40,091 nt of DNA, from the sequence record PQ821641; one strand, given 5' to 3'. Below the pieces are notes generated by a model. It did not search any database, had not been told where the DNA came from, and worked only from the letters and a program-made list of their open reading frames with translations. Of the stretch, positions 6,004 to 36,681 are shown piece after piece; positions within the stretch are counted from its first letter, which is position 1, and each line of letters starts with the position of its first letter. Position numbers and translations under genes: made by a program. This DNA is from Escherichia phage SD6.

Positions 6004-6077
6004 CAGACCTACAGTTACTGGCCTTGTGGCTGGGAGCACTAGCAGTATTCACTTTAATCCGACGCAGAAGAGGTTAA
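6000..6077 (+). CDS. Hypothetical small transmembrane peptide (25 aa)
   Basis: ATGA overlap with the upstream stop; hydrophobic core followed by RRRRG; weak call. Confidence 0.25.
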   Translation: MTDLQLLALWLGALAVFTLIRRRRG

Positions 6078-6100
6078 CCTAAACTATCACTATAGGATTA
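6078..6100 (+). promoter_or_regulatory. Phage promoter (phi1.1-like)
   Basis: CCTAAACTATCACTATAGGATTA matches the window-wide promoter consensus. Confidence 0.7.
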
Positions 6101-20989: not shown

Positions 20990-21874
20990 ATGTCTCAATC
21001 AGTTTATGCCGAGTTTGGCGTTAGCTCTAATGCAATCACTGGTTCCGTTGAGGACCTGAACGAACACCAGAAGTCTATGCTTGAACAGGACGTAGCTGTT
21101 CGTGATGGCGATGACGCTATTACCTTCAAGCAAATGGAAGCCGAAAACGAAGAGGCTATCGAAGAAGACGAGAACGTCGAAGAGACTGAAGGTGAAGAAG
21201 ACCACGAGTCAGATGACGAAGAGTCTGAGACCGGTGGTGAGCAGCCGGAGTTCATCGAACTGGGTGATGCACCAAAAGAGCTTACCGAAAGTGTCACCGC
21301 TCTGGATGAAAACGAAGCTGCATTCGACGACATGGTGTCTTCTGCTGTAGAAGCTGGCAAGGTCACTGCTGATGAAATTACCGCTATCAAGGCTGAATAC
21401 GCCAAGGATGGTAAGCTGTCTGACGCATCCTACGCTAAGTTGCAGGAAGCAGGTTACACCAAGCGCTTCGTAGATTCGTTTGTCCGTGGTCAGGAAGCTC
21501 TGGCTGAACAGTATGCTGCTGGTGTGGTTCGCTACGCTGGTGGTGCTGAACAGTTTAATCGCATCCTGTCACACCTTGAGTCAACCGACCCGTCAACTCG
21601 TGAAGCACTGGAAGCTGCTATCGTTCGTAAGGACATTGCGACTACCAAGGCTCTGCTGAATCTGGCTGGCAAGACTCTTGGTAAAGCTGTAGGCGTTAAA
21701 CCTCAGCGTACCATCACCACTCAGGCCAAACCTGTGGTAGCACCTAAGGCTCCTCAGACCGAAGCATTCAGCTCTAAAGCTGACATGATTAAGGCTATGA
21801 GTGACCCGAGATACCTGCGTGACGCTAAGTACACGATGGAAGTTCGAGCTAAGGTAGCTGCATCAAGCCTGTAG
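20990..21874 (+). CDS. Capsid assembly scaffolding protein (gene 9)
   Basis: 294 aa, highly acidic and low-complexity, between the portal and capsid genes. Confidence 0.9.
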   Translation: MSQSVYAEFGVSSNAITGSVEDLNEHQKSMLEQDVAVRDGDDAITFKQMEAENEEAIEEDENVEETEGEEDHESDDEESETGGEQPEFIELGDAPKELTESVTALDENEAAFDDMVSSAVEAGKVTADEITAIKAEYAKDGKLSDASYAKLQEAGYTKRFVDSFVRGQEALAEQYAAGVVRYAGGAEQFNRILSHLESTDPSTREALEAAIVRKDIATTKALLNLAGKTLGKAVGVKPQRTITTQAKPVVAPKAPQTEAFSSKADMIKAMSDPRYLRDAKYTMEVRAKVAASSL

Positions 21875-21876
21875 GA

Positions 21877-21898
21877 CTAAACTATCACTATAGGGAGA
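21877..21898 (+). promoter_or_regulatory. Phage promoter (phi10-like), best consensus match
   Basis: CTAAACTATCACTATAGGGAGA, with a GGTTTCCC-containing leader resembling the T7 gene 10 leader. Confidence 0.8.
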
Positions 21899-22001: not shown

Positions 22002-23045
22002 ATGGCAAACGTTCCGGGTCAGAAAATTGGTACAGACCAAGGTAAAGGCAAATCCAGTACCGACGCTCTGGCGTTGTTCCTGAAGGTATTTGCTGGTGAA
22101 GTCCTGACCGCATTCACTCGCCGCTCTGTAACGGCTGACAAGCATATTGTCCGTACCATTCAGAACGGTAAGTCTGCTCAGTTCCCGGTCATGGGTCGCA
22201 CCTCTGGTGTGTATCTGGCTCCTGGTGAGCGACTGTCCGATAAGCGTAAAGGTATCAAACATACCGAGAAAGTGATTACCATTGATGGTCTGCTGACTGC
22301 CGATGTGATGATTTTCGACATTGAAGACGCGATGAACCACTACGACGTGGCTGGCGAGTATTCCAACCAGTTGGGTGAAGCTCTGGCTATCGCTGCTGAT
22401 GGTGCTGTTCTGGCTGAAATGGCTACCCTGTGTAACCTCCCAGCTGCATCCAACGAGAACATCGCTGGTCTTGGTACTGCTTCCGTACTGCAAGTTGGTA
22501 AGAAAGCTGACCTCGACACCCCGGCTAAACTGGGCGAAGCAATCATCGGTCAACTGACCATTGCTCGTGCGAAGCTGACCGCCAACTACGTTCCTGCTGG
22601 CGACCGTTACTTCTACACCACGCCGGACAACTACTCTGCAATCCTCGCGGCTCTGATGCCTAACGCTGCTAACTATGCTGCGCTGATTGACCCAGAGACT
22701 GGTAACATCCGTAACGTGATGGGCTTCGTTGTTGTTGAAGTTCCGCATCTGGTACAGGGTGGTGCTGGTGAGACCCGTGGTGCCGACGGTATCACTATCG
22801 CTTCAGGTCAGAAACACGCATTCCCGGCGACTGTTACTGGCGACGTTAAAGTTGCTATTGACAACGTTGTGGGCCTGTTCTCTCACCGTTCTGCTGTGGG
22901 CACTGTTAAGCTGCGCGATTTGGCACTTGAACGTGACCGTGACGTAGATGCTCAGGGCGACCTGATTGTTGGTAAGTACGCTATGGGTCACGGCGGTCTG
23001 CGTCCTGAAGCGGCTGGCGCACTGGTTTTCAGCCCAGCGGCGTAA
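22002..23045 (+). CDS. Major capsid protein (gene 10A)
   Basis: 347 aa, collinear with T7 gp10A (ALFLKVF.GEVLTAF, KHTEKVITIDGLLTADV, GTVKLRDLALER, AMGHGGLRPEAAGA). Confidence 0.97.
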   Translation: MANVPGQKIGTDQGKGKSSTDALALFLKVFAGEVLTAFTRRSVTADKHIVRTIQNGKSAQFPVMGRTSGVYLAPGERLSDKRKGIKHTEKVITIDGLLTADVMIFDIEDAMNHYDVAGEYSNQLGEALAIAADGAVLAEMATLCNLPAASNENIAGLGTASVLQVGKKADLDTPAKLGEAIIGQLTIARAKLTANYVPAGDRYFYTTPDNYSAILAALMPNAANYAALIDPETGNIRNVMGFVVVEVPHLVQGGAGETRGADGITIASGQKHAFPATVTGDVKVAIDNVVGLFSHRSAVGTVKLRDLALERDRDVDAQGDLIVGKYAMGHGGLRPEAAGALVFSPAA

Positions 23046-23176
23046 GCACCTTTAGCCAACCTAACGTCGCTACAGTAGCGGCTGCACCTGAAGAGGAGAC
23101 CCTAACTCCTCAACAGAAAGCTGCGCGTACTCGTGCTGCGAACAGGGTCGCTAAACTGGCTAAGTCCAACAACTAA
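22002..23176 (+). CDS. Minor capsid protein (gene 10B) made by -1 frameshifting at G GTT TTC (23024-23030)
   Basis: The heptamer GGTTTTC lies 5 codons before the 10A stop and the -1 frame stays open for 51 codons to a TAA at 23174-23176, mirroring T7 10A/10B. Confidence 0.6.
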
Positions 23177-23182
23177 TTGAAA

Positions 23183-23218
23183 CCCCTTGGGTGCCTTCGG
23201 GTGCTTGAGGGGTTTTTT
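23183..23218 (+). terminator. Tphi-like intrinsic terminator after the capsid gene
   Basis: CCCCTTGGGTGCC-TTCG-GGTGCTTGAGGGG followed by TTTTTT; G-U-rich stem like T7 Tphi. Confidence 0.75.
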
Positions 23219-23239: not shown

Positions 23240-23806
23240 ATGGCTCAATACATTCCACTGAATGCTAACGATGACTTAGACGCCATCAACGATATGTTAG
23301 CTGCTATCGGTGAACCAGCAGTCCTACAGCTTGACGAGGGGAACGCTGACGTATCGAACGCTCAACGTATACTGCATCGTGTCAATCGTCAGGTCCAAGC
23401 CAAAGGCTGGAACTTTAATATCAACGAAGCTGCTGTCCTGACACCTGATGTCCAAGACAATAGGATTCGATTCTTGCCGTCATACCTTCGTGTAATGACC
23501 GCTGGGGCCACCAGCTACTACAGCAACATGGGTGGATACCTGTACGACCTGTCCACTCAGTCAACCACTTTCACCGACCCTATCACGGTAGAGCTTGTGG
23601 AGATGAAGCCATTCTCCGAGATGCCTGTGGTCTTCAGGGACTACATCGTCACTAAAGCTAGCCGAGAGTTCAACGCTAAGTTCTTCGGTAGCCCAGAGTC
23701 TGAACTGTACCTTCGTGAGCAGGAAGCAGAACTCTATCAGCAGGTCATGGAATACGAGATGGATACTGGTCGCTACAACATGATGTCTGACATAGGGAGG
23801 GACTAA
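23240..23806 (+). CDS. Tail tubular protein A (gene 11)
   Basis: 188 aa; IVTKASREFNAKFFG.PE and MEYEMD.G.YNM as in T7 gp11. Confidence 0.95.
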   Translation: MAQYIPLNANDDLDAINDMLAAIGEPAVLQLDEGNADVSNAQRILHRVNRQVQAKGWNFNINEAAVLTPDVQDNRIRFLPSYLRVMTAGATSYYSNMGGYLYDLSTQSTTFTDPITVELVEMKPFSEMPVVFRDYIVTKASREFNAKFFGSPESELYLREQEAELYQQVMEYEMDTGRYNMMSDIGRD

Positions 23807-24033
23807 TGGCTAGTCACAACCTGAAGATTCACCGCCAGCACTTTGGTCCAGTACAACTAGGTCTAAAGACAGCAGAGCTGAGACTTAACGACCGGGACTT
23901 TAAGGTTGGCGATTGGCTTATCCTGAATGAGTGGGACAACGGGTATACTGGACAACAGGTAGCGCGTAAGGTTGTCCACATTGCTGAAGTTGGTGACATC
24001 GCTGAAGGATACGTCCTAATGAGTATGATTTAA
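23806..24033 (+). CDS. DUF3850 / ASCH-like domain protein (75 aa)
   Basis: H.LKIH...F..V..G.KTAELRLNDRDFKVGDWL.L.EW motif typical of DUF3850; TAATG overlap with gene 11; GGGAGGG upstream. Confidence 0.6.
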   Translation: MASHNLKIHRQHFGPVQLGLKTAELRLNDRDFKVGDWLILNEWDNGYTGQQVARKVVHIAEVGDIAEGYVLMSMI

Positions 24034-33200: not shown

Positions 33201-34136
33201 TCTGACATCGTGGAGCATAGTCTTACTGGTAGTAAGCGTAAGTTCGATGACCGCTGGCTGAAGACCGCTGGTATCTCTGACGAGCAGTGGAAGGGTATTA
33301 AGTCCCTAATCCGTGAGTCAGTGACTCGTGGTCCAGACGGGAAGTACACCATCAAGGATAAGAAGGCGTTCAGTCAGGACCCAAGGGCTATGGACCTGTG
33401 GCGTATGGGTGACACCATCGCTGATGAAACGTTACTCCGCCCTCATAAGCTGTCCAACATGGACGCCAAGGCTTATGGCCCACTCGCTAAGACTGTCCTT
33501 CAGTTTAAGAACTTCGTCATCAAGTCCATCAATGGGCGAACCATGCGAACCTTCTACAACGCAACGAAGAACAACCGAGCGATGGACGCTGCCTTGTCCA
33601 CTGTGATGTCTATGGGTCTCGCTGGTATCTACTACATGGCTCAGGCGCACGTCAAGGCTTATGCTATGCAGGATGGTCGAGACCGTGATTACCTCAAGCA
33701 AGCTCTGGACCCGACGATGATTGGATATGCGGCTCTGTCCCGTAGCTCACATCTAGGTGGCCCACTTGGGGTCGCTAACATTCTGGGCGGCATCGCTGGG
33801 TATGAGGACACTAAGATGCTCCGCTCGTCTATCCTCCCTCGTTCACCTACAGAGAAGCCTGAACGTGCCATCTCGTATGGTGCGGCTACAAGTGACCCTG
33901 TGATGAATGTCGTAGGTAACTTCTTGGAGCAGGTTCCAGCTTTCGGCTATGCTGCTAACGTTGGTGCTTCGGCTTACAACTTGGCTGGCTACCTCAAGGC
34001 TGATACTCGTGTCAACGAGCGAGACTACATGACCGGGATGTATAACACGTTCCGTGAACTGGTCCCGAATGACCCGATTACCCAGAAGTTGCTGCTTGGA
34101 ACGTTTGAGGAGCAAGGTATCCACATCAAGGACTAA
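30249..34136 (+). CDS. Internal virion protein D (gene 16) with a non-canonical N-terminal domain
   Basis: 1295 aa; from about residue 180 collinear with T7 gp16 (GVDPLTYVP, RLEARETARN, SPTGMQSGASGK, ENPAMFG, GTYVPHVY, GLENNSFLEARNLFDSD, RVNGDIAIMAGTGKTT); the first ~130 aa (RNANPGNIR...RWAPPNEN) do not resemble the T7 N terminus as remembered. Confidence 0.95.
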   Translation: MATRGVRNANPGNIRKSKDQWEGAIGDDGEFVIFDSPESGVRALGKNLLSYGRQGYDSIEKIINRWAPPNENDTQAYIDSVVAATGIPATQSLDLSDPDTLSSLAQAISFHETGSRYDPEVYQQGVARALNGISPKTPPVSANVFDALTEGLKAKPKVDLGENLPTAAGLNIEGQAPEAPNESFGEMFYKATGETMQEREDRSTWFGFGAATEAEVKNSMVGVAIRAGQTEDSLDVIGDVFNPTRWNNHKWTREELDQIRNAGVLPQYYGVITGGSPQNLTELINLALENQKLDQEKAKAGTGAQLAAGVIGAGVDPLTYVPIAGQVGKGGKLVNKMFTVAAQSGALAGVSEMARTSVSGGDAHVAEAILGGALFGGGMTAIADGLGRALGRNTNEFAGPATRLEARETARNVDGQDLSRLPIQEGEQTFSHQGVKFADVPNEPGSVRLEDGSILIGENPLNPKTRQVFDEVIEPERAAAGVNLGGLTEIGLKLLRSENPEIRGVAADLVRSPTGMQSGASGKIGTTASDVFERLRAVDHRFYNDIDDAVTEALKDPYFQTAFWRDSGAFRQDIYQRVSMAIEDGSGNLKAELTPGELKVYDLLKNQFDAKREMMENPAMFGRPDAQSIFPGSRFKGTYVPHVYSKQMKELYIKELGSPEALQEAIKKSWLTSYASRPEVKKRVDEALLEADPTLTPEGLAAAVDKYANDKAYGISHTEQFERSSVMEENINGLVGLENNSFLEARNLFDSDMSIVLPNGQTFSVNNLREWDMDKIVPAYNRRVNGDIAIMAGTGKTTKEMKDLVETMMNKAGDDGKLKGEVSTLRDTLKILTGRARRDGADDAAFATVMRTMTDLSFFAKNAYMGVQNLTEIGGMLARGNVRAMLHGVPMFRDLAFRNKKVGASEIKDLHNVIFGKELDDSIRPSKQDVIDRLRAYSSLSKPTATALGTAKYYTGELAVRSPFTKVLNGTTNYLLDAGRQGFLSDIVEHSLTGSKRKFDDRWLKTAGISDEQWKGIKSLIRESVTRGPDGKYTIKDKKAFSQDPRAMDLWRMGDTIADETLLRPHKLSNMDAKAYGPLAKTVLQFKNFVIKSINGRTMRTFYNATKNNRAMDAALSTVMSMGLAGIYYMAQAHVKAYAMQDGRDRDYLKQALDPTMIGYAALSRSSHLGGPLGVANILGGIAGYEDTKMLRSSILPRSPTEKPERAISYGAATSDPVMNVVGNFLEQVPAFGYAANVGASAYNLAGYLKADTRVNERDYMTGMYNTFRELVPNDPITQKLLLGTFEEQGIHIKD

Positions 34137-34155
34137 ACTATCACTATAGGAAACG
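34133..34155 (+). promoter_or_regulatory. Phage promoter (phi17-like)
   Basis: CTAAACTATCACTATAGGAAACG overlapping the gene 16 stop. Confidence 0.7.
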
Positions 34156-34200: not shown

Positions 34201-36681
34201 ATGTCCACGATTACACAATTCCCTTCAGGAAACACTCAGTACAGGATTGAGTTCGACTACCTAGCCAGAACGTTTGTTGTTGTTACGCTGGTGAATAGCT
34301 CTAACCCTACCATGAACCGTGTACTTGAAGTGGGTCGAGATTACCGATTCCTTAATCCAACGATGATTGAGATGTTGGTTGACCAATCGGGTTTCGACAT
34401 CGTTCGTATTCACCGTCAGACTGGAACTGACTTAGTGGTAGACTTCAGGAATGGCTCAGTGTTGACAGCTAGTGACCTGACCAATTCAGAGCTTCAGGCT
34501 ATCCATATTGCAGAAGAAGGTCGAGACCAAACTGTTGACTTAGCGAAGGAATATGCAGATGCTGCTGGTAGCTCTGCTGGCAACGCTAAGGATAGCGCGG
34601 ACGAAGCACGACGAATCGCTGAGAGTATCAGGATCGCCGGTCTAATTGGCTATATTACCCGTCGCTCCTTCGAGAAAGGCTTCAACGTTACAACATGGAG
34701 CGAGGTCCTGCTGTGGGAAGCGGATGGTAGCTATTACCGCTGGGATGGTACACTTCCAAAGAATGTTCCTGCGGGTTCAACTCCAGATAGCACTGGTGGG
34801 GTTAAATTAGGTGCGTGGGTTAATGTTGGAGATGCCGCATTACGATCACAAATATCAAATCCTGACGGGGCTACTTTATATCCAGAATTACAAAGGGCCA
34901 GATGGCGTGATGTAGGTGATATACGAGGTTGGAACCTGAGGGGCGATGGCTCTGATGAAGCCGTTTTACTACAGCAAGTAATCAATACTGGAAATGTATT
35001 CATACCTAAAGGAATGATTATAAGCCACTCAACTGTAACAATTCCAAAGGGTACACAAATAAAACTTGCAGATGGAGCTGCTCTCAGGTCTTTGGTAAAA
35101 GATGCGCTTTCATTTGAAAAAGATGAAATGTTCAAATTGGCTTCCTCGGCGGCATCTGGAACCACAACCTTGACACTGGCATCAGCCCCAACTTACACAA
35201 ATTTTGACAAAGTAATGATTACGAGGTCGGAAGACACCAGTGACAGTTGGTATATCGCGAATGCCCAAAATCCAGACCAGTTAGGATACCAAGGTGAGGT
35301 TTTCCGCGTTCTGAGCATAGATGGAGCAACTATAACGTTGGCATCCCCAGTGCCATGGGAGCTAACAGTGGCGAATGCAGAGGTTCGAATTATTAAAGGA
35401 CCAACAACAAAAATAACCGGAGGAAATCTAATAAACGGGGCGACTGGCTCAAACTATATGTATCAGTCAAAAGGCGCCTCATTGATTGAGTTTGAGGGTA
35501 CTTCCTTCGATTACAACGGCAATGGTGGCAGTCGCCATGACACCTCCTACGGCATCAAATATTCTGGTACTCGACACAAAAATAGGGTCGGTAACGGGAA
35601 CGTATTTCTTGGGTATGGGTCAGTAGAGTGTACTATTGAAGGAACAGAGCAGAATGGTGGTGCAGGTGGAGATGCTCAGATCATTGTTTACGCTGGATGT
35701 AGAAACATAGTTTCTAAAGGTAATAAATGCTTCCCTGTCGCATCAGAAGCCGGAGTTTACATTGGTGCGAAGTGCATAGGCGGGGCTTCCGTTTCAGACC
35801 ATATTAAAGGCGGTAAATACGGGTTTATTTCAGCATTCGGCGTACAAAAATTTTCCGTCGATAAACCGGTGTTACTCGACCAGTTGAAAGCCGCTATATT
35901 CGCTGAGCAATGTCAAAATTTTGAGGTTGAATCGCCTGTAATCCGTTTTATTAAAACAGGACAACAGACTGTAGCGGCTATCCTGCTCAAAGATTCAGAT
36001 TCTTACGTTATTGACTGTAATATTCCTATCGATACCGGGGATGACGGCTACATCGTTAGCTCATATAGTTCGCCAGCGTATAACACTGTAGCAAGGAAAG
36101 GCATAAGCCTGAGAGCTTCAGGGAAAGGAAGTATTAACCTAAGCTCAGCGATGGTTAATTTCTCGTTAGTTGGCTGTGAAGTTACCGGGGATATAACGCT
36201 GTACAACGGGGATATAGGTTCGTCCGACGGCTTTATTAGTAATAATCGATGCCGATATATGGTTCTGCACTCACTTCAGAAGAGTGAGATTACTGATACG
36301 ACAATTACAGGAAACCAAAATGGATATGGAATACGACTGAGCGGGAACTCTAGATGGAACAATATCAGACGCAGCAAAATCAGTGGTGTAACCACAGCGT
36401 TCTTTGTTAACCCAGCACCCGCAAATATATACACGAATGCGCTTCATGAGGATAACATGATAGATTACTCAACAGTAACCACATTCGTATCATCGCCGAC
36501 TGGAACAACCACTCCAGCGACGGGCTTGTTAAACCCTGCACCGGTGAGGAACTTTTTTCTACCATCTACAGGTTGGCAAGATGCACCCACAACCAAGCGA
36601 ACGATTAGCGGCTGGAGGCATAAAGGCACAAATACCGGTGTGGCGACTGATTGGTTTACTATAGCTATCAATGAAGCATGA
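34201..36681 (+). CDS. Tail spike protein with a T7 gp17-type N-terminal anchor and a putative beta-helix depolymerase C-terminal part
   Basis: 826 aa; residues 1 to ~150 match T7 gp17 (FDYLAR.FVVVTL, DYRF, LVDF.NGS.L.A.DL, HIAEE.RD); the remainder is Gly/Asn/Ser/Thr-rich and repetitive, and the encoding DNA looks AT-richer by eye. Confidence 0.9.
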   Translation: MSTITQFPSGNTQYRIEFDYLARTFVVVTLVNSSNPTMNRVLEVGRDYRFLNPTMIEMLVDQSGFDIVRIHRQTGTDLVVDFRNGSVLTASDLTNSELQAIHIAEEGRDQTVDLAKEYADAAGSSAGNAKDSADEARRIAESIRIAGLIGYITRRSFEKGFNVTTWSEVLLWEADGSYYRWDGTLPKNVPAGSTPDSTGGVKLGAWVNVGDAALRSQISNPDGATLYPELQRARWRDVGDIRGWNLRGDGSDEAVLLQQVINTGNVFIPKGMIISHSTVTIPKGTQIKLADGAALRSLVKDALSFEKDEMFKLASSAASGTTTLTLASAPTYTNFDKVMITRSEDTSDSWYIANAQNPDQLGYQGEVFRVLSIDGATITLASPVPWELTVANAEVRIIKGPTTKITGGNLINGATGSNYMYQSKGASLIEFEGTSFDYNGNGGSRHDTSYGIKYSGTRHKNRVGNGNVFLGYGSVECTIEGTEQNGGAGGDAQIIVYAGCRNIVSKGNKCFPVASEAGVYIGAKCIGGASVSDHIKGGKYGFISAFGVQKFSVDKPVLLDQLKAAIFAEQCQNFEVESPVIRFIKTGQQTVAAILLKDSDSYVIDCNIPIDTGDDGYIVSSYSSPAYNTVARKGISLRASGKGSINLSSAMVNFSLVGCEVTGDITLYNGDIGSSDGFISNNRCRYMVLHSLQKSEITDTTITGNQNGYGIRLSGNSRWNNIRRSKISGVTTAFFVNPAPANIYTNALHEDNMIDYSTVTTFVSSPTGTTTPATGLLNPAPVRNFFLPSTGWQDAPTTKRTISGWRHKGTNTGVATDWFTIAINEA

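Follow-up and report, generated by a model that had tools for sequence, protein, structure and literature searches.

A predicted T7-type −1 ribosomal frameshift close to the 3′ end of the major capsid gene in Escherichia phage SD6

The DNA examined here is a window of 40,091 nucleotides (the whole stretch analysed, to which coordinates refer unless another locus is named) from Escherichia phage SD6 (PQ821641), whose sequence places it among the T7-like phages, in the genus Kayfunavirus and its K1F/EcoDS1 group. The first 25 kb show ∼93% identity to known genomes over 86–90% of the length, and the capsid region is 95–97% identical to that of many Kayfunavirus members, the best match being Hafnia phage yong1 (97.1%). 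Gene 10A encodes the major capsid protein, residues 60–342 of which match the Pfam family Gp10A-like (PF21703) with an E value of 7.8e-105, and the end of this domain coincides with the candidate shift site described below. Solved capsid chains in the Protein Data Bank that match 10A include 9vvq, 7y23 and 2xvr; all matches found there were chains of 10A length, and no solved structure of the tail was among them. The features of the locus, all on the plus strand, are as follows.

21876–21898, plus strand: phage-RNA-polymerase promoter upstream of gene 10, the equivalent of phi10, ACTAAACTATCACTATAGGGAGA, a member of a 10-copy family.
22002–23045, plus strand: gene 10A, open reading frame of the major capsid protein; 347 aa, 36.2 kDa, stop codon TAA at 23043–23045.
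23009–23176, plus strand: entire region over which the −1 frame stays open; 55 sense codons and TAA at 23174–23176, with TGA at 23006–23008 upstream.
23024–23030, plus strand: slippery heptamer G_GTT_TTC; Val342-Phe343 in the zero frame (GTT is codon 342, TTC codon 343).
23027–23176, plus strand: predicted 10B-specific segment; the T at 23027 would be read twice, followed by 49 codons and the stop; tail FQPSGVSTFSQPNVATVAAAPEEETLTPQQKAARTRAANRVAKLAKSNN.
23179–23218, plus strand: Tphi-like intrinsic terminator; 17-bp hairpin at 23179–23216 with a UUCG loop, CCCC at 23183–23186 and U6 at 23213–23218.

The promoter of gene 10 begins 2 bases after the stop codon of gene 9, as does the annotated 'phi' promoter of EcoDS1. 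The family to which it belongs has the core CTAAACTATCACTATAGG and ten sites spread between 3006 and 39685 (e.g. 6071–6096, 21869–21894 and 34125–34150), and it departs from the T7 consensus upstream of CACTATAGG. On the other side of the capsid gene, the −1 extension and the terminator together fill the 195 nt that separate 10A from gene 11. Some relatives carry an extra small gene between the terminator and gene 11 (L084, 582–686, PV714130; also L023 and L032), and an extra small gene in phage Pipis is annotated as a single-pass membrane protein; SD6 has no such gene. Further downstream, between tail genes 11 and 12, we noted a 75-aa ORF with a DUF3850/ASCH domain (23806–24033, plus strand; Pfam E = 1.5e-19), the ATG of which overlaps the stop codon of gene 11. 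This ORF is found in 146 phage records at 90–99% identity under labels that vary between hypothetical, DUF3850 and RNA-binding protein.

An earlier note, made from the letters of this DNA, had placed a slippery heptamer G GTT TTC close to the 10A stop, followed by 51 open codons in the −1 frame, and had judged it very likely that a longer capsid protein of about 390 aa is made. Its coordinates were borne out, and its reading is supported. The heptamer at 23024–23030 is in register with 10A; counting back from the stop, its TTC is the fifth codon, and four sense codons lie in between. Counted from 23024, the −1 frame comprises 50 sense codons and then the TAA at 23174–23176, which together make the 51 codons of the note, and 44 of its codons lie beyond the 10A stop. 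The longer product computes to 391 aa. Since the −1 frame is closed upstream by the TGA at 23006–23008, a shift into the extension is possible only within 12 codons, and GGTTTTC is the sole slippery motif inside this zone; the A_AAG motif is absent from the SD6 overlap zone. The −1 ORF at 23009–23176 contains no ATG, GTG or TTG, so that independent initiation at a canonical start codon is impossible. The heptamer departs from the strict form X_XXY_YYZ in that X_XX is G_GU, with full re-pairing available to the A-site tRNA only; G_GU... is a recognised intermediate form of the heptamer (PMC5009743).

We modelled the 10B join on the RefSeq record of T7, where the gene 10 product is a two-piece join. 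The predicted SD6 protein, join(22002..23027, 23027..23176), has 391 aa and a mass of 40.9 kDa, and its tail has a pI of 10.3. Predicted peptides of the tail comprise the chymotryptic QPSGVSTF and SQPNVATVAAAPEEETL and a tryptic junction peptide of 48 residues (4912 Da), past which the remainder of the tail would give very short tryptic peptides. A Pfam search of the −1 tail returned no domain. Because residue 342 is exactly where the Pfam capsid domain stops, the tail would be an appendix to the folded subunit, and it is probably located on the outside of the capsid.

The terminator begins three bases after the −1 stop at 23174–23176. Its hairpin has a predicted free energy of −25.2 kcal/mol (z = −4.5), and it was also picked up by a pattern scan. 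It aligns with Tphi of T7, the CCCC run included, and the homologous site in EcoDS1 is annotated as the terminator 'phiTE'. That the −1 frame ends just before a Tphi-like terminator, given in the earlier note as 23183–23218, is thus correct, the hairpin occupying 23179–23216 and the U6 run extending to 23218. For T7, a passage of a recoding review describes the CCCC of the terminator, located over 200 nt 3′ of the shift site, as involved in frameshifting (PMC5009743).

Within the window itself, the individual signals for a frameshift are weak. The motif GGTTTTC occurs twice, against 4.1 occurrences expected from shuffles, and 16% of composition-matched shuffles stay open for 44 codons. As GTT, TTC and G-ending Leu codons are preferred in 10A, the heptamer would arise from Leu-Val-Phe with a probability of ∼0.38 given the codon usage of this gene. 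The lengths of −1 runs after other SD6 genes are uninformative, because the genome is packed and these −1 frames continue into the next gene. The second in-register G_GTT_TTC (35298–35304, plus strand) lies within the tail-fibre ORF 34201–36681; we rejected it as a further shift site since the −1 frame there is shut after 32 codons and its occurrence is within chance expectation. Given the weakness of the statistics internal to the window, we built the case on comparison with relatives. The same codon usage figure, by which GTT TTC follows a G-ending Leu codon with this probability, speaks for a different reading of the locus, namely that it is a silent relic. The heptamer would then merely reflect preferred Leu-Val-Phe codons, the downstream sequence would be kept because it forms the 3′ end of the mRNA and the surroundings of the terminator, or owing to recent common ancestry, and little or no 10B would be made. 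We consider this very unlikely, and the comparisons below bear on it from both sides.

Comparison of the extension with T7 10B, which the earlier note had proposed as a check, established homology. The SD6 tail is identical to the T7 10B tail at 30 of 52 positions (58%; BLASTP, E = 5e-11 for the pair). Across 45 aligned codons, the differences number 11, 10 and 28 at positions 1, 2 and 3 of the −1 frame, corresponding to a pS of 0.78, a pN of 0.22 and a pN/pS of 0.28. Synonymous sites are therefore near saturation between SD6 and T7 and still 32 of the 45 tail residues are identical, which argues against a relic. Against two other lineages, L007 and L037, the pN/pS of the tail is 0.49 and 0.61, respectively. 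In a comparison that covered the window, K1F, T7 and two other lineages, the block ACN CCN .. CAG.A. GCN GCN CGN ACN CGN GCN GCN AAC varied at every third base alone, and this period-3 pattern of variation (ACNCCN...GCNGCNCGNACNCGNGCNGCNAAC) is characteristic of translated frames. In 64 phage records, the −1 peptide is present over its full 50 aa at 92–96% identity.

Among close relatives the amino-acid constraint on the tail is weak. When the window and nine further loci were compared, variable sites in the tail numbered 5, 4 and 8 by codon position, of 42, 43 and 43 sites, which are small numbers, and the first and second codon positions of the tail were less constrained than those of 10A. 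In the same ten sequences, third-position diversity was 0.052 in the tail compared with 0.105 in 10A overall and 0.142 in its last 100 codons. Both features speak for a relic. The pattern could also be explained by recent module exchange.

We then considered the association between slippery motif and extension in 68 distinct related capsid-gene ends taken from IMG/VR and GenBank, scoring G_GTT_TTY, N_GTT_TTY and A_AAG as motifs. A −1 extension of at least 40 codons was present in 42 of the 44 ends with an in-register slippery motif and in 3 of the 24 ends without one (Fisher p = 2e-12, a value that is not corrected for phylogeny). In the three motif-less ends with a long −1 run, the run crosses the terminator and encodes no recognisable domain. 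The heptamer is invariant in the aligned close relatives, T7, L007, L037 and K1F. Relatives lacking the −1 extension have lost it by synonymous changes (GTC TTC, GTA TTC and GTG TTC), whereas those bearing the extension retain it, a pattern that also argues against a relic. Several −1 extensions among the relatives are Big_2 Ig-like domains according to Pfam. On the opposite side of the argument, phage vB_EcoP_F and its sister record FFK3 have both lost one nucleotide of the 10A stop (TAAG to TAG; L009, 2042–2044, and L088, about 225–227; KY295894 and ON548433). Their tail ORF is intact and out of the −1 frame, a −1 shift giving only 17 residues from the first codon of the heptamer. These phages are viable, so the tail is dispensable for viability. 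Set against this, K1F, which is 96% identical to SD6 in the −1 ORF, shows −1 frame fusions on its virions, and on balance we prefer the reading in which 10B is made.

A number of side observations concern the diversity of such extensions. Closely related capsid genes carry interchangeable −1 tails, with the switch point directly 3′ of the slippery site. The short tail of the T7/K1F type is one kind of tail, and an 88-aa module without a Pfam match is a second (type B: L010, L012–L022, L073 and L074). A third kind, in more distant relatives, is a Big_2 Ig-like tail reached via A_AAG and not G_GTT_TTC (L031, L040, L046–L052, L058, L060 and L065). A large −1 continuation where the capsid gene ends was seen in L086 (7959–10399, minus strand) and also in L038, L054 and L085. 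In two IMG/VR contigs with the capsid end ...CTG GTT TTT ACT..., the −1 frame runs for ∼470 aa and includes a Big_2 domain (Pfam); by eye, this stretch also contains SGNH/GDSL-hydrolase motifs (GDSL, CGTNN and DGTHSN), followed by another C-terminal region. Two readings are open to it: a very large frameshifted capsid decoration with an esterase-like domain, or a separate gene that begins just past the capsid stop.

The RNA downstream of the SD6 heptamer is less like a typical frameshift cassette. In pseudoknot-free folding, the 80 nt that follow the heptamer are no more stable than their shuffles (z = 0.01), and the stable structure 5–9 nt after the heptamer that is canonical for such cassettes is not predicted for SD6. 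An extended hairpin is predicted 4–5 nt after the heptamer in T7 (z = −1.6), L007 (z = −3.2) and L037 (z = −1.9), in a comparison of 23031–23110 of the window with L004 1194–1273, L007 2030–2109 and L037 2030–2109; neither SD6 nor the K1F group has such a prediction. The lack of a predicted hairpin right after the heptamer is a further point in favour of a relic. If the shift does take place, its efficiency could for this reason be lower, and what drives it would have to be either the heptamer by itself or more distal 3′ sequence with the terminator, as reported for T7. A fold of 202 nt is dominated by the terminator, and a 7-nt perfect complement, TTAGCCA at 23052–23058 with TGGCTAA at 23159–23165, spans the tail in the minimum-energy fold and in the centroid fold alike; no covariation support for this pairing was found. 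The missing T7-type hairpin, the unusually uniform synonymous sites of the tail and the 7-nt complement raise the idea that sites of the K1F group, SD6 included, use a stimulator different from that of T7. We hold this to be unlikely; if true, the 10A:10B ratio in Kayfunavirus would be governed jointly by the terminator and a long-range RNA element. A five-sequence consensus fold that pairs the slippery site with GAAAGCUG (23116–23123) was discounted, as were apparent compensatory changes in a hairpin ∼35 nt downstream in the same fold, because the sequences number only five and two of them are near-identical, the paired blocks are conserved as coding sequence and the first half of the tail is a non-homologous alignment.

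Taking the comparative evidence together, we think it very probable that a T7-type −1 programmed ribosomal frameshift operates at the end of 10A and gives a minor 391-aa 10B. Most ribosomes would read 22002–23045 and release the 347-aa 10A. A minority would slip back one base on G_GUU_UUC with tRNA-Val on GUU in the P site and tRNA-Phe on UUC in the A site. The tRNA-Phe would move from UUC to UUU with full re-pairing, and the tRNA-Val from GUU to GGU with re-pairing at two of three positions. Slipped ribosomes would read 49 more codons in the −1 frame and stop at 23174–23176, before the terminator, so that 10B would consist of 10A through Val342 and a basic C-terminal tail of 49 residues (pI 10.3). 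The tandem slippage steps on G_GUU_UUC are drawn from what is established about frameshifting in general; for SD6, we infer the occurrence of the shift, its efficiency and the exact tRNA events.

Even less likely than a relic is transcriptional slippage, in which the phage RNA polymerase would drop one U on the T run in part of the mRNAs. The site does contain a homopolymeric TTTT, and since both routes yield a tail in the same frame they are inseparable by sequence alone. However, the run is of 4 T only, and efficient polymerase slippage needs runs much longer than this. Moreover, the base before the T run is conserved, which is relevant to tRNA re-pairing and not to polymerase slippage, and the recoding review, in its entry for T7 gene 10, treats this case as ribosomal frameshifting (PMC5009743).

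Other routes to the tail are the least probable of the explanations considered. A shift at C_CCA (23033–23036), two codons after the heptamer and inside the overlap zone, would alter one residue only (Ser for Gln), the predicted junction being ...ALVFSPSG... as compared with ...ALVFQPSG... for a shift at the heptamer, but C_CCA is absent in relatives that keep both the heptamer and the extension, e.g. ...GGTTTTCACAGCAGCG... Stop-codon readthrough was rejected because the zero frame past the TAA ends after 10 codons and is a different frame, a +1 shift because the +1 frame closes at 23053, and independent initiation of the tail as a small ORF on account of the missing start codons noted above.

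A −1 frameshift at this position is already known, from T7, from K1F in the same genus with experimental use, and from the EcoDS1 record, and the SD6 site is one more member of a textbook case. Its value is in part one of annotation, as the joined 10B coding sequence is omitted from most Kayfunavirus records: most GenBank entries give the 347-aa 10A alone, and in some of them 10A, given with no join, bears the name 'minor capsid protein'. In the EcoDS1 GenBank record, a note says of gp10A that it 'may be translated via slippery sequence', and a stretch is labelled 'region of similarity to gp10B'.

The T7 gene 10A/10B −1 ribosomal frameshift was described by Condron, Atkins and Gesteland (1991; cited through PMC5009743 and PMC1635266); ∼10% of translations yield 10B according to a statement in the latter, and an entry in the former lists T7 gene 10 as a ribosomal frameshift on the heptanucleotide G_GU... 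The claim in the earlier note that SD6 reproduces the T7 arrangement agrees with our comparison. The two phages share an identical G_GTT_TTC, placed in the same register close to where a homologous capsid gene ends, a homologous tail with the conserved block TLTPxQxAARTRAAN, a −1 stop right before a Tphi-like terminator with CCCC, and a phage promoter upstream. They differ in the number of sense codons between the heptamer and the 10A stop (four in SD6, three in T7), in the length of the tail past this stop (44 aa and 53 aa), in the distance of the terminator from the site (∼150 nt and ∼180 nt) and in the extended hairpin 4 nt after the heptamer, which is predicted for T7 (z = −1.6) and not for SD6 (z = 0.0). 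The two tails also diverge in their N-terminal half and at the extreme C-terminus.

K1F is much closer. Its −1 ORF is identical to that of SD6 at 161 of 168 positions (96%), and the heptamer, the 44 added triplets and the terminator are common to both phages; two tail residues differ (Val for Ala and Lys for Glu), along with a few synonymous changes. The K1F g10b is described as '-1 frameshift, 44 triplets', and phage with a g10b::gfp fusion were stable and fluorescent (PMC6277420). Display of SpyTag and of adhesin domains via −1 frame fusions on viable virions has followed, and the K1F papers conflict on whether 10B is essential (PMC6277420 and later display work). Since the K1F site serves for low-copy capsid display, the same engineering should transfer to SD6.

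For Kluyvera phage Kvp1, analysis of a virion band by mass spectrometry proved that a −1 shift takes place at phenylalanine, on TTTTCA (PMC2579914). The TTTTCA site is common to SD6, but Kvp1 belongs to another genus and the first half of its tail differs. The tails of L007 and L037 are akin to the T7/Kvp1 type and end in ...ARKEAEL... The SD6 site also resembles those of T3/phiYeO3-12 and the Big_2-tailed T7-like capsids in its position in the gene, in the −1 direction of the shift and in placing a C-terminal decoration on a fraction of the subunits. In T3/phiYeO3-12, however, slippage takes place on lysyl codons (A_AAG) and leads into an Ig-like tail, whereas SD6 would shift on G_GTT_TTC into a tail without a Pfam domain.
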